Below are positions 1 through 28,300 of a stretch of DNA of 28,300 nucleotides, in pieces. Below the pieces are notes generated by a model that was not told where the DNA came from, did not search any database, and saw nothing but the letters and a program-made list of their open reading frames with translations. Every line of letters begins with the position of its first letter. Position 1 is the stretch's first letter. This DNA is from a bacterium (lineage in GTDB: Bacteria; Patescibacteriota; Gracilibacteria; BD1-5; UBA2023), in NCBI GenBank assembly GCA_035437565.1, contig DAOMYL010000012.1:1-28300 (forward strand). The letters run 5' to 3'. The translations under genes and the position numbers were made by a program.

Positions 1-144
1 GGATACGGAATTCTCAATTCCGCACTCTCTCTCTCGGGCGGACACCGTGCGAACATGCTCGGCTCCGATTGGACCACGGTCGGAATCGGTATCGCCCGCG
101 ATGGCGATCGGGCATACTATGTGCAGGTATTCGGGATGGAATAA
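1..144 (+). CDS. CAP/SCP (YkwD-like) domain protein, C-terminal fragment; 5' end lies outside the window
   Basis: Frame 1 is open from the window edge to TAA 142-144. It translates to GYGILNSALSLSGGHRANMLGSDWTTVGIGIARDGDRAYYVQVFGME. This resembles the C-terminal GHxxNxL...G(V/I)G...Y(W/Y)VQxF end of bacterial CAP/SCP domains. Confidence 0.55.
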   Translation, partial: GYGILNSALSLSGGHRANMLGSDWTTVGIGIARDGDRAYYVQVFGME

Positions 145-156
145 CCTTCCTCCCAT

Positions 157-729
157 ATGCGAATCCGAGTTGTTATGCTCGCCGTACTCATGTTCTTGCT
201 CGTTGCTGCGGCACTCGCACTGCCATTCGTCCTGCGTGCACCAGAATCAATTTTTCACACCTCTCCTATGCGAATTTCAAGCTCTGTGTTCGAACATGGA
301 TGACTGATTCCTGTACGCTATACCTGCGATGGAGAGAATATCTCTCCTCCCCTCTCGATCGCCGATGTGCCAGCGAATACCGTGTCGCTCGCACTCATCA
401 TGGATGATCCCGATGTCCCCACATCCGTCCGAGAGGACGGTCTCTGGGTTCACTGGGTCATCACAGATCTTGATGTAGCTCTCACGGAGATTCCCGCATC
501 CGTCGATCCAACGACACTGGGGAATCCCTGAGTGAACACTCGATGACTCCCGATCTATGGCGGTCCTTGCCCTCCTGATCGAGAGCACCGATACTTCTTC
601 CGACTCTACGCGCTCGATCGCCGACTCGATCTCTCGACCGGAGCAACGAAAGACCAGGTTGAAAAAGCTATGGACGGACATATAATCGCGGAAGCGACCC
701 TCATGGGTCGATATGACCGCCCGCGATAA
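157..729 (+). CDS. PEBP / YbhB-YbcL family (Raf-kinase-inhibitor-like) protein with N-terminal signal/TM segment; 3 UGA sense codons
   Basis: ATG 157, TAA 727-729, 191 codons. In-frame TGAs at 301-303, 529-531 and 544-546. The read-through product is MRIRVVMLAVLMFLLVAAALA..FEHG[G*]LIPVRYTCDGENISPPL..IMDDPDVP..LWVHWVITDL..GNP[G*]VNTR[G*]LPIYGGPCPPDREHRYFFRLYALD..ATLMGRY. It carries the PEBP signatures DPDxP, HW and GPxPPxxxHRYxF. The standard-code track shows only fragments. Confidence 0.8.
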
Positions 730-730
730 T

Positions 731-2095
731 ATGCAAAAAATTCATTTCATCGGTATCGGAGGTATCGGGACATCCGCTCTCGCACGATACTACCTCGCCA
801 CAGGATGGAGTGTCTCAGGATCAGATGCGTCCGATAGCTCGCTCCTACACGCGCTCGCCGATGAGGGAGTACGAGTTTTTCTTGGAGAGGACGCGAATAA
901 CCTCGATGATGATGCCGACCGTGTGGTATACAGCGAGGCGATCATTACCAAGCCCGATCTCTCAAAAGAAGAGAATCTCATGGCAAATCCCGAGCTTGCG
1001 AAAGCGCGGACGCTCGGGATAGAAAATCTCAGCTATCCGCACGCGCTCGCCGAACTCTTCAATGCAAAACAATTCGGAGTGGCAGTCACGGGGAGCCATG
1101 GAAAGTCTACGACCACCGCCATGCTCGGGACGATTTTATCAAGGACAGGGGGGTCGGCACTGGCGGGCACACTCGTTCCGGCATTCGGTGGACGAAATAT
1201 TTTGGTGGATTCTCACAGTGAAATATTCGCGATCGAGGCGTGCGAATATAAGCGGAGCTTTCTCGCGTATCACCCCACTATCACGGTTATTACCAATATC
1301 GATCTCGATCACCTCGATTACTACCGGGACCTCGAAGATTACATCAGTGCGTTTCGCTCTCTTTGCGCGCAGACTCGTGATTACGTTGTCATTGCCGCGA
1401 CGGATGCCCACTCTGCCAAGCTCGCTCAAGAGCTGCCAAATGCCGTGCGCGTATACGACTCATATTATAGTGTGCCGGATTTAGTGAGTGGGGATTTCCA
1501 GATGTTTTCGATCCCCGCACTCGACCTGCGCGTAAAAGGTGAGCATATGCTCGCGGACGCTCGCCTCGCCTACGTAACAGCGAGACTTCTCGGAATAGAG
1601 GAGTCGATTGTCGTGTCCGCTCTTGAATCATATTCGGGTTCGTGGCGGCGAGCAGAAATCGTGGGGACTACCGCGCAGGGAAATATCATCATGTCGGACT
1701 ACGGACACCATCCGAATGAAATCCGTCCCACACTCGCTGCAATCAAGGAGGCAAATCCAGAAAAAAAGCTCGTTGTGTGCTTCGAGCCGCACCAGTACTC
1801 GCGCACGATCGAGCTCCTGGATGGATTTCTCTCGAGCTTCGACGATGCGGATCTACTCATCATCCCGAGTATCTATTTCTCGCGTGATAAGCATGAAGAT
1901 GTAGAGGCAATGCCAGCAAAGCGGTTCGTCTCACTGCTCCAAGAAAAATATCCACACACCGTCTACGGCGAAGGGCTTGAGAATACCAGCACATGGCTCT
2001 CTCGGTATGATGAACAACATCCCGATACCTCTATCATACTCCTACTCGGAGCTGGGGCAGTCGACAGTCTGCGAGAGGGATTCGAGTACTGCTAA
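731..2095 (+). CDS. murC: UDP-N-acetylmuramate--L-alanine ligase
   Basis: The track ORF 713..2095 ends in TAA. The N-terminus MQKIHFIGIGGIGTSALARYYLATGWSVSGSD is the MurC-type GxGGxG fold. VTGSHGKSTTTAM is the Mur ligase P-loop, and NIDLDHLDYY plus a C-terminal Mur ligase domain follow. I prefer ATG 731, 1 nt after the PEBP stop, but ATG 713 is also possible. There is no internal TGA. Confidence 0.9.
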   Translation: MQKIHFIGIGGIGTSALARYYLATGWSVSGSDASDSSLLHALADEGVRVFLGEDANNLDDDADRVVYSEAIITKPDLSKEENLMANPELAKARTLGIENLSYPHALAELFNAKQFGVAVTGSHGKSTTTAMLGTILSRTGGSALAGTLVPAFGGRNILVDSHSEIFAIEACEYKRSFLAYHPTITVITNIDLDHLDYYRDLEDYISAFRSLCAQTRDYVVIAATDAHSAKLAQELPNAVRVYDSYYSVPDLVSGDFQMFSIPALDLRVKGEHMLADARLAYVTARLLGIEESIVVSALESYSGSWRRAEIVGTTAQGNIIMSDYGHHPNEIRPTLAAIKEANPEKKLVVCFEPHQYSRTIELLDGFLSSFDDADLLIIPSIYFSRDKHEDVEAMPAKRFVSLLQEKYPHTVYGEGLENTSTWLSRYDEQHPDTSIILLLGAGAVDSLREGFEYC

Positions 2096-26500: not shown

Positions 26501-27079
26501 CTTGTCGATTTTTACATTGATGACACCTCGCCGCTCGATCTCCACCTCGAACCAGCTTCCCTTCTGCGGAACCATTTTCATGGCGAAAAATCCGGAGAAA
26601 CGAGAATCCGGCGTGAAGAAGATACCAGTAGAACGGATGATCTGACTGACAATGATACGCTCGACTCCATTGACGATGAAGGTCCCGCGTTCGGTCATGA
26701 GCGGCATTCCTCCCATATAGACGTCCTGTTCTTTTAGTTCGCCGGTCTCTTTGTTGAGCATCTCAAGACGTACCTTGAACGGTGCCTCGTAGTTGAGATT
26801 CTTACGCTTGCAGTCGAGAATATCGTACTTCGGCTCTTCGATCATGAGATCGAGGAACTTGATTTCGATTTTTTCTTCGGAGAAGTCATTGATCGGGAAT
26901 GTCTCGTCGAACGCTCGACGGAGTTTTCCATTGAGAAAATCCTTGTACGAGTTGATCTGGACTTCGATGAGTTCCGGAGTGGGAATGACTGACGTATCGT
27001 CCGTGAAAAAGTAGCGTCACTGCACATCGTAAAGTGCCCCTATCTCCTGCGGGGTTGGCAGCTTCTTCGCCCGGTTCAT
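23561..27079 (-). CDS. rpoB: DNA-directed RNA polymerase subunit beta; 1 UGA sense codon at codon 21
   Basis: ATG 27079..27077, TAA 23563..23561, 1173 codons. In-frame TGA at 27017-27019. The N-terminus restored by read-through is MNRAKKLPTPQEIGALYDVQ[G*]RYFFTDDTSVIPTPELIEVQINSYKDFL.., carrying the conserved L(I/V)EVQxxSYxxFL box. Downstream motifs include GDKMAGRHGNKGIVARI and [27 protein letters not shown]. The track ORF starts at an internal Met (26845). Confidence 0.95.
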
Positions 27080-27167
27080 TGGCATGCGGGTAAGCGGAAA
27101 GTGAATATGCAAGAAAAGGCGCGGACCTTCCCCCTCAACACAATCGTGAGTCCGTCGCGATGGGCCA

Positions 27168-27195
27168 ATTGTATCGAAATTACCTCCTTTTGCAA
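27168..27195 (-). promoter_or_regulatory. Putative sigma70-type promoter upstream of rpoB
   Basis: On the - strand: TTGCAA (27195..27190), a 16-nt spacer, TACAAT (27173..27168). It sits about 85-90 nt upstream of ATG 27079, inside the only sizeable gap (177 nt) of the - strand gene string. This is a motif-level call. Confidence 0.35.
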
Positions 27196-27256
27196 ATCCG
27201 CTTTCACAGTTTCTTCGGTTTCTCTTCTCGGTCGTTGCGTATGTCGTCTCGGTGTG

Positions 27257-28300
27257 CTACCTATGGGCAATAAACGACTGCTTCCGGAAGAATCTCCACG
27301 CCGAAGCAAAGAGCGCGAATGCAAACATAATGATCAATGGAATGAGTCCTCCGAATCCACGGGCGGATGCCGATATATCCGGTCCGTCTGACGGAGCTTC
27401 ACCATCTCGTGCGACAGGCGTATCTGATACAGGGTCCTCGGACATGGCAGGATCGGTATTAGGACTTGATTCGCTGTTGGTGGTGTCATTCTCCTCGGAG
27501 GATGTAATCGGGAGAGGCTCAACGCTATCCGAGGACTCCGTCTCGACAGGAGCGTCTTGCGTATCGATCATCGGCACCGAATCCACTTCTCCCGAGGCAT
27601 CCATCCCGTCAGATCCAGCCATTTCGGAGTCGGTATCCGTTCGCGTGGGAGTGGCCGACTCTGGTGGTATGTACTGCCGGACAGGGAGGAGCACTTCTTC
27701 AATATGCGACTCGGGCTCTTCAACGAGAATCTCTGAGATGATGCGCCCATCGGGTGCTATGAGCCGATATGTGCCGTACGCGTGGATGTCGGACGGAAGC
27801 ACATACGATACAGAGAGTGTCCGGCCAGCCGAGAGAAAATCCCGTGGCTCAAATTTATGCAGTGTCACGGAATCTTTTTCGAGTTTCCACCCTTCGAGCG
27901 CGATACTATTTTTTTCGTTTTGGGAAAAATTCATAAACGAAGCGACTCGCGTCTTGGGATCAACGGAAAATGCGGCATGATCGGGGTAGTGTATTTCGTA
28001 GTCCTGCCGGTAGATAGGCGATTCGTTCGTGGGATCGGTGAACGCAAAATACAAAAACGGTGTGCTATGATCTATCCGAATCGTGCCCGTATAGGCGTAT
28101 GCATCCATCGGTGAGCCGTCCGGATCAAATGTATAGAAGAGTTTTGCGCTCGGATCAGAAGCTATCAGCCGAACATCGAACATCCGGTCATACACACCGG
28201 ACTCCACGGATGCAGAGATAGATATCGCCGCAGAAGCATGGAACGGCAACGAGAAAATAACACTAAGAAGAATGAGAAATGCGGAAGTTCTTTGGATCAT
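27257..28300 (-). CDS. Predicted cell-surface protein: signal peptide, chitobiase/hexosaminidase-C-like (FN3-associated) module, lamin-tail-like (LTD) module, acidic low-complexity stalk, C-terminal TM anchor
   Basis: The ATG is exactly at the window end (28300..28298). TAG 27259..27257, 347 aa. The signal peptide is MIQRTSAFLILLSVIFSLPFHASA. SGVYDRMFDVRLIASDPSAKLFYTFDPDGSP..YTGTIRID resembles the G-x-Y..V.L....IYYT.DGS.P module. NFSQNEKNSIALEGWKLEKDSVTLHKFEPRDFLSAGRTLSV resembles LTD. A D/E/S/T/P-rich segment follows, then the anchor GLIPLIIMFAFALFASAW-RFFRKQ. An upstream in-frame start outside the window cannot be excluded. Confidence 0.6.
   Translation of the reverse strand: MIQRTSAFLILLSVIFSLPFHASAAISISASVESGVYDRMFDVRLIASDPSAKLFYTFDPDGSPMDAYAYTGTIRIDHSTPFLYFAFTDPTNESPIYRQDYEIHYPDHAAFSVDPKTRVASFMNFSQNEKNSIALEGWKLEKDSVTLHKFEPRDFLSAGRTLSVSYVLPSDIHAYGTYRLIAPDGRIISEILVEEPESHIEEVLLPVRQYIPPESATPTRTDTDSEMAGSDGMDASGEVDSVPMIDTQDAPVETESSDSVEPLPITSSEENDTTNSESSPNTDPAMSEDPVSDTPVARDGEAPSDGPDISASARGFGGLIPLIIMFAFALFASAWRFFRKQSFIAHR

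Follow-up and report, generated by a model that had tools for sequence, protein, structure and literature searches.

Results

The stretch of DNA analysed here, referred to as the window, comprises positions 1 to 28,300 (28,300 nucleotides, nt) of contig DAOMYL010000012.1 of the assembly GCA_035437565.1, and this report is concerned with the meaning of the codon UGA in its genes. The window is almost certainly a part of the core chromosome of an uncultured bacterium of the Patescibacteria or Candidate Phyla Radiation (CPR) (UBA2023, BD1-5) using translation table 25, in which UGA codes for glycine and translation ends at UAA and UAG only. In the genes of the window, UGA is a sense codon that matches glycine, UAA and UAG are the stop codons in use and release factor 1 (RF1) is encoded.

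In-frame TGA codons in the gene model

Reading frames were delimited by TAA and TAG only and the genes were chosen by homology and start codons. The resulting model contains 24 complete coding sequences (CDS) and one 3' gene end (1..144), which makes 25 CDS covering 97.5% of the window at a guanine plus cytosine (GC) content of 53.6%. Twenty-nine in-frame TGA codons were found in 13 of the 25 CDS, namely those for the PEBP, HAD-IB, HAD-like, MGMT-like, DUF192 and BatD-like proteins, two methyltransferases, truB, secA, tig, moxR and rpoB (Table 1). The sites at 301, 529, 544, 5828 and 5986 are TGA on the plus strand and the other 24 appear there as TCA (minus-strand TGA). All of the 29 in-frame interruptions are TGA and none is TAA or TAG; with the off-frame stop frequencies as null model (69% TGA), such an outcome has a probability of about 2e-5. 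The CDS end in TAA (18) or TAG (7). An initial annotation of the window had announced 29 TGA codons in 13 of 25 genes, 18 TAA and 7 TAG stops and a nearly gap-free gene array after recoding. The independent model returned the same sites, with no extra and no missing one, and identical stop counts, and the coding density is in agreement with the gap-free array. The further statement that no gene needs TGA as a stop is true, but it is partly a consequence of the frame definition. In particular, the TAA/TAG-only test of termination is blind to the three TGA codons located 2-3 codons upstream of stops: the sites 5828 (MGMT-like), 8010 (secA) and 18012 (BatD) are followed by TAA or TAG within 2-3 codons and are uninformative singly.

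The same protein families continue in frame beyond the TGA codons, as had been claimed in the initial annotation, and both Pfam and PDB alignments bear this out. Pfam envelopes cross TGA codons in the PEBP, HAD-IB, HAD-like and DUF192 proteins, in truB (two domains), tig and the first methyltransferase (methyltransferase 1), in the lid domain of moxR and in BatD, where a tandem TGA-TGA is spanned. Homologs from the PDB align straight across the TGA positions of window genes. For moxR, the alignment with 2r44 runs end to end (residues 30-340, E=3e-96). The pattern is neither accidental nor circular.

Residues opposite the TGA codons

Every conserved column examined in which the window has a TGA is occupied by glycine in the homologs (truB, DUF192, HAD-IB, PEBP, tig and rpoB). 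Phosphoserine phosphatases from the PDB, in 4 of 4 cases, place the first G of their GDGxND motif opposite codon 172 of the HAD-IB hydrolase. For codon 56 of DUF192, both PDB homologs (3m7a and 3pjy) have the G of a conserved GLM motif. Codon 139 of truB is opposite the G of ARQG in the Mycobacterium tuberculosis and Escherichia coli TruB proteins. For the PEBP protein, codons 125 and 130 match G and codon 49 matches R in 3n08, its closest homolog in the PDB. The column of tig codon 166 contains G, G and TGA in the relatives, and that of rpoB codon 23 contains G in three relatives and TGA in the fourth (locus L004). Among the sites examined, no TGA of the window was aligned with tryptophan or cysteine.

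The reciprocal comparison, in which the window residue was read opposite the in-frame TGA codons of relatives, was carried out with four GTDB genomes (rpoC) and 80 metagenomic loci (secA). Opposite the 90 TGA codons of the relatives' rpoB and rpoC, the window has glycine at 76 and tryptophan at none. In all, 84 related loci were compared, secA having in-frame TGA codons in 62 of them; 1,724 in-frame TGA codons were tallied over the loci, and the window has glycine opposite 1,238 of them (72%) and tryptophan opposite one, for a background of 7.3% glycine codons in the compared genes. Statistically, this reciprocal test is much stronger than the alignments of the window's own sites. Across the clade as a whole, TGA is interchanged with GGN. 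Synteny around secA is poor in the 80 metagenomic loci, from which secA was recovered and tig, lspA, the membrane protein gene and prfA in few; owing to this, the HAD-like, BatD and methyltransferase sites lie outside the ortholog comparison and the column evidence given above applies to the other genes.

TGA usage and GC content in the clade

As judged from secA, in-frame TGA codons follow relatedness to the window. SecA relatives with at least 49% identity have 1-40 in-frame TGA codons in secA (the exceptions are the partial high-GC matches L084 and L088), and those with 46% identity or less have zero. Relatives using in-frame TGA are thus nearer to the window by SecA than the TGA-free ones, a pattern which, together with the 100% identity to GCA_002335145.1 (o__BD1-5), places the window inside the recoded BD1-5/Absconditabacterales clade. 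Among loci L012-L091, the number of TGA codons in secA falls with rising GC, from 24-40 at 21-27% GC to 1-7 at 40-45% GC, and the 2 TGA codons of the window secA are in line with this trend. The sparing use of TGA in the window (2 in secA versus 24-40 in the relatives of 21-27% GC) is consequently attributed to the high GC of its genome.

TGA accounts for 4.4% of the glycine positions of the window and is unevenly distributed. The rpoB and rpoC genes have together 1 TGA in 2,522 codons versus 8 expected (P=0.001), and TGA is instead concentrated in accessory genes: the HAD-like gene has 5 in 228 aa, and BatD has 4. In relatives L001-L003, rpoB and rpoC contain 0-1 TGA, and in L004 (37.5% GC) they contain 87.

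Recoding also reaches beyond the window. About 0.6-2 kb past position 28300 lies a gene (L008 8023-9400, the same as in L005) whose product is a large serine recombinase with Resolvase and Recombinase domains; the gene has at least 5 in-frame TGA codons and is given as pieces of 98-119 aa in public calls. The recombinase is a possible mobile element adjoining the rpoBC region. Differing gene calls had raised the suspicion of strain variation past the window's right edge. Such variation was ruled out: the DNA of this region is identical in four assemblies and only the gene calls differ.

Decoding machinery

The window contains prfA, the gene for release factor 1, which recognises UAA and UAG. 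Its product scores 483 and 476 bits with the NCBIfam RF1 equivalog models (483 versus a cutoff of 400) and 276 bits with the prfB model, under the cutoff of 370, and it bears a PET tripeptide of the PxT type. In two TGA-rich relatives, ARAGORN detected a tRNA gene with anticodon UCA (L027 6743-6821 and L046 8643-8721), located about 1.4 kb upstream of secA in these very AT-rich recoded loci. This tRNA has 79 nt, an encoded CCA end, the pairs G1:C72, C2:G71 and G3:C70 and the discriminator U73. Those four elements are the glycine identity rules for tRNA used by Shulgina & Eddy (PMC8629427).

By comparison with table-25 organisms and with these relatives, UGA would be read by a tRNA-Gly with anticodon UCA. 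RF2 would have been lost, which would leave no release factor for UGA and no termination competing with glycine insertion. At the 53.6% GC of this member of the clade, TGA is a minor codon for glycine, and rpoB and rpoC avoid it.

The U32 peptidase gene (4070-5410, minus strand) is closest to TrhP, a prephenate-dependent tRNA U34 hydroxylase. That a U34-modifying enzyme could bear on the way in which a UCA anticodon tells UGA from UGG is pure speculation.

Public records and annotation

Public records of the window were found by exact-protein look-ups. The window is 100% identical to DDBV01000020.1 of GCA_002335145.1 across the compared regions, and four assemblies (JGI 3300006417, ENA ERZ936889, which comes from a bioreactor sludge sample, ENA ERZ761605 and NCBI GCA_002335145.1) are 100% identical over 1-12095 and 17257-28300. 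The identity of these four assemblies excludes base-call and sequencing errors, so that the sequencing errors envisaged in the initial annotation as a ground for rejecting the reassignment are not the source of the TGA codons.

GCA_002335145.1 is known as 'Patescibacteria group bacterium UBA2023' (o__BD1-5, s__UBA2023 sp002335145), with a CheckM completeness of 0.67 and a GC of 0.53 (PMC8629427). It is listed in the Figure 4 source data of Codetta (Shulgina & Eddy 2021, PMC8629427) with UGA as glycine and CGA and CGG as arginine. A Codetta analysis had been proposed as a check in the initial annotation, and the published one gives UGA = Gly. The main text of the same paper gives a GC range of 0.21-0.53 for the recoded clade, which is described there as lacking RF2. 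In another study, all examined metagenome-assembled genomes (MAGs) of c__JAEDAM01, the class which includes family UBA2023 and was formerly part of Gracilibacteria/BD1-5, recode UGA to glycine (PMC11393006). Both for the clade and for GCA_002335145.1, the glycine meaning of UGA is thus prior knowledge.

With table 11, 13 of the 25 genes are truncated or split, and public calls made with it cut secA into 820 and 81 aa (the latter a SEC-C piece), tig into 165 and 165 aa and moxR into 208 and 68 aa. The initial annotation had predicted bad fragmentation under this table. The 13 affected genes agree with that, but the wording was too strong, as table 11 still keeps 87.5% of the codons in the correct frame at 53.6% GC. 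Among the genes cut by table 11 are secA, tig, truB and moxR, together with rpoB at its N-terminal end. Correct annotation of the contig requires table 25.

Other genes of the window

The features of the gene model are collected in Table 1. The CAP-domain gene, of which the window contains the 3' end, is called at full length with PF00188 CAP in locus L009. No rplJ-rplL pair precedes rpoB. Upstream of rpoB (27086-28300), a gap of 171 nt is followed by the gene for a secreted, C-terminally anchored protein of 347 aa, and this layout recurs in relatives L002 and L003, where the protein is weakly similar.

Table 1. Coding sequences of the window in the TAA/TAG-delimited gene model. TGA sites are given by their first base in plus-strand numbering, with the codon number (aa) in brackets.
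Gene or product	Positions	Strand	In-frame TGA	Family matches and remarks
CAP-domain protein, 3' end (25th CDS)	1..144	+	none	TAA at 142-144
PEBP/YbhB family	157..729	+	301, 529, 544 (aa 49, 125, 130)	Pfam PBP E=1.7e-39, aa 51-186
murC	713..2095	+	none	Pfam Mur_ligase, Mur_ligase_M, Mur_ligase_C; NCBIfam murC 325.8 bits, slightly below the 335.1 cutoff
HAD-IB hydrolase	2092..2742	-	2227, 2347, 2458 (aa 172, 132, 95)	Pfam HAD over aa 10-181
HAD-like (UMPH-1-like), 228 aa	2755..3441	-	2872, 2887, 3076, 3160, 3361	Pfam UMPH-1, aa 18-141, covers three TGA sites
2H phosphoesterase-like	3491..4069	-	none	weak Pfam 2_5_RNA_ligase2 match
Peptidase U32 / TrhP-like	4070..5410	-	none	Pfam Peptidase_U32 E=3.9e-83; NCBIfam TrhP 492.7 bits, cutoff 534 not reached
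MGMT-like DNA-binding domain	5498..5842	+	5828, 3 codons before stop	Pfam DNA_binding_1 aa 17-92
DUF192	5821..6282	+	5986 (aa 56)	Pfam DUF192 aa 44-137
truB	6279..7139	-	6723, 6555, 6495 (aa 139, 195, 215)	Pfam TruB_N, TruB_C_2
lepB (signal peptidase I)	7141..8013	-	none	Pfam Peptidase_S26 E=7e-40
secA	8001..10745	-	8283 (aa 821), 8010 (aa 912, 2 codons before TAA)	
tig (trigger factor)	10761..12065	-	11568 (aa 166)	Pfam Trigger_N, FKBP_C (aa 162-244), Trigger_C; FKBP_C between the other two
Membrane protein, no assigned family	12118..12894	-	none	no Pfam match, no NCBIfam match; orthologs in 12 related loci
lspA (signal peptidase II)	12875..13318	-	none	Pfam Peptidase_A8
tyrS	13327..14535	-	none	NCBIfam tyrS equivalog, 321 bits
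Class I S-adenosylmethionine (SAM) methyltransferase (methyltransferase 1)	14539..15198	-	15088, 14617 (aa 37, 194)	Pfam Methyltransf_23 aa 32-158, crosses aa 37
clpP	15214..15849	-	none	Pfam CLP_protease E=2e-81
prfA (release factor 1)	15906..16988	-	none	NCBIfam RF1 equivalogs above cutoff; PET tripeptide
moxR AAA+ ATPase	16997..18028	-	17393, 17144 (aa 212, 295)	Pfam AAA_3 aa 64-194, AAA_lid_2 aa 268-332
BatD-like	18003..18848	-	tandem 18642/18639; 18195; 18012 (2 codons before TAA)	Pfam BatD aa 47-147, crosses the tandem TGA-TGA
Methyltransferase (RrnaAD-like)	18858..19445	-	18927 (aa 173)	Pfam RrnaAD, Methyltransf_25
rpoC, 1348 aa	19466..23512	-	none	67-71% identity to four GTDB genomes
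rpoB	23561..27085	-	27017 (aa 23)	
Secreted membrane-anchored protein	27257..28300	-	none	weak Pfam CHB_HEX_C_1 and Fn3_assoc matches only; exact match on 5 public contigs

Discussion

Alternative meanings of the TGA codons

The initial annotation had proposed a genome-wide reassignment of UGA and left the table open between 25 and 4. The reassignment itself is in agreement with the in-frame homology, the TGA-bearing recombinase outside of the window, the split of the SecA relatives and the presence of RF1, and the alignments together with the reciprocal test narrow the choice to table 25 (glycine). Several points weigh against this reading. About half of the TGA sites of the window are in variable columns: R and N of the PDB homolog stand opposite moxR codons 212 and 295, and at secA codon 821 the 80 relatives have S, A, G or Y, small residues for the most part. 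Codons 95 and 132 of HAD-IB and 195 and 215 of truB are likewise in variable columns. At such sites, the glycine identity rests on the clade-wide pattern and not on site-by-site proof. No tRNA gene was detected across the window and the flanks of the contig (about 10 kb to the right and 1.5 kb to the left), and the release factor evidence covers 28 kb of a MAG of about 67% completeness.

If UGA meant tryptophan, the table 4 reading found in Mycoplasmatales and in endosymbionts such as Hodgkinia, the window would carry the commoner of the bacterial UGA reassignments, and Hodgkinia shows that it occurs at high GC (PMC8629427); nothing in the window favours it. Tryptophan stands opposite none of the aligned TGA sites of the window and opposite one of the 1,724 TGA codons of the relatives, against 1,238 for glycine. 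Moreover, the tRNA(UCA) of the relatives has the acceptor stem and discriminator of a glycine tRNA and the published Codetta call is glycine (PMC8629427). Table 4 is effectively refuted by the alignments, and its likelihood is estimated to be minute. Still closer to nil is the chance that the TGA codons are real stops in a standard-code genome, produced by pseudogenes or by assembly or sequencing errors, or else selenocysteine or readthrough sites. It is true that table-11 callers yield open reading frames (ORFs) ending at the TGA sites and that the default ARAGORN label of the relatives' tRNA(UCA) is tRNA-SeC. However, every one of the 29 interruptions is TGA without any frameshift, and the essential single-copy genes rpoB, secA, truB and tig keep their homology in frame, in keeping with the earlier opinion that these four are unlikely all to be pseudogenes. 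With the identical sequence in four assemblies, pseudogenes and sequencing errors were rejected. Selenocysteine recoding was rejected as well: no site is opposite cysteine, the 13 families are unrelated to each other and are not selenoproteins, the tandem TGA-TGA of BatD speaks against selenocysteine and real stops alike, and an Rfam scan of the window found no element. The tRNA(UCA) of the relatives, 79 nt long, was judged by its acceptor stem and discriminator, which carry glycine identity elements.

A last alternative would give UGA two meanings, glycine inside genes and a possibly leaky terminator at three gene ends, 2-3 codons before TAA or TAG. Three of the 29 TGA codons fall within the final 4 codons of their genes, versus 0.3 expected (P=0.004). 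Two of them form ATGA stop/start overlaps, between MGMT-like and DUF192 (5827-5830, plus strand) and between secA and lepB (8013-8010, minus strand), and the third is found in ATGCCTGA at the BatD/moxR junction (18012-18019, minus strand). The rarity of TGA among glycine codons and its avoidance in rpoB and rpoC could be viewed in the same way. On the other side, no C-terminal enrichment of TGA is seen in code-25 relatives (458 long ORFs, rate in the final 4 codons 0.5-1.1x the baseline), and the clade is described without RF2 (PMC8629427). The gene-end pattern is equally explained by fossil stops, by relaxed C-terminal tails or by the small sample, and the choice of start codon is uncertain for DUF192, lepB and moxR. 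A double meaning of UGA is considered very improbable. The gene-end TGA codons look like fossil UGA stop/start overlaps, though the enrichment may be due to chance because the recoded relatives show none. It is hardly to be expected, though conceivable, that UGA retains context-dependent termination or termination-reinitiation coupling, as a dual-meaning or partly reverting codon; alternatively, these TGA codons would be preserved ancestral stops.

Comparison with known systems

With UGA read as glycine under table 25, the window is a clean case of a code already known from Gracilibacteria/BD1-5, and its genome has the highest GC of the Codetta set. The value of the case is practical rather than conceptual and no new question is opened by it; UGA keeps its glycine meaning even under a GC pressure that reduces TGA to a minor codon.

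The MAG HHAS10 (UBA2023/JAEDAM01), an episymbiont of Zoogloea in activated sludge (PMC11393006), shares with the window genome the family name and the sludge or bioreactor habitat. It is a separate MAG, likened here by name and habitat. Table 4, as used by Mycoplasmatales/Entomoplasmatales, Hodgkinia, Nasuia, Zinderia and Stammera, resembles the present case in the passage of UGA from stop to sense, in the dispensability of RF2 and in the fragmentation of genes by table 11. It differs in the amino acid, which is glycine and not tryptophan in the window, and in the lineage, which is CPR/Patescibacteria and not Mollicutes or insect endosymbionts. With regard to Absconditabacteria, the difference is that CGA and CGG remain arginine codons in GCA_002335145.1. 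The closest counterpart is table 25 itself, the Candidate Division SR1 and Gracilibacteria code with UGA = Gly, for which PMC8629427 cites Campbell et al. 2013 and Rinke et al. 2013 and which was also treated by Hanke et al. 2014 (PMC4032931). The window shares with it the in-frame UGA opposite glycine, the UAA and UAG stops, RF1 and the BD1-5/Gracilibacteria lineage, and the clade carries a tRNA-Gly(UCA), seen here in relatives. No difference in kind was found; with a GC of 0.53, the window genome reaches the upper limit reported for the clade (0.21-0.53).

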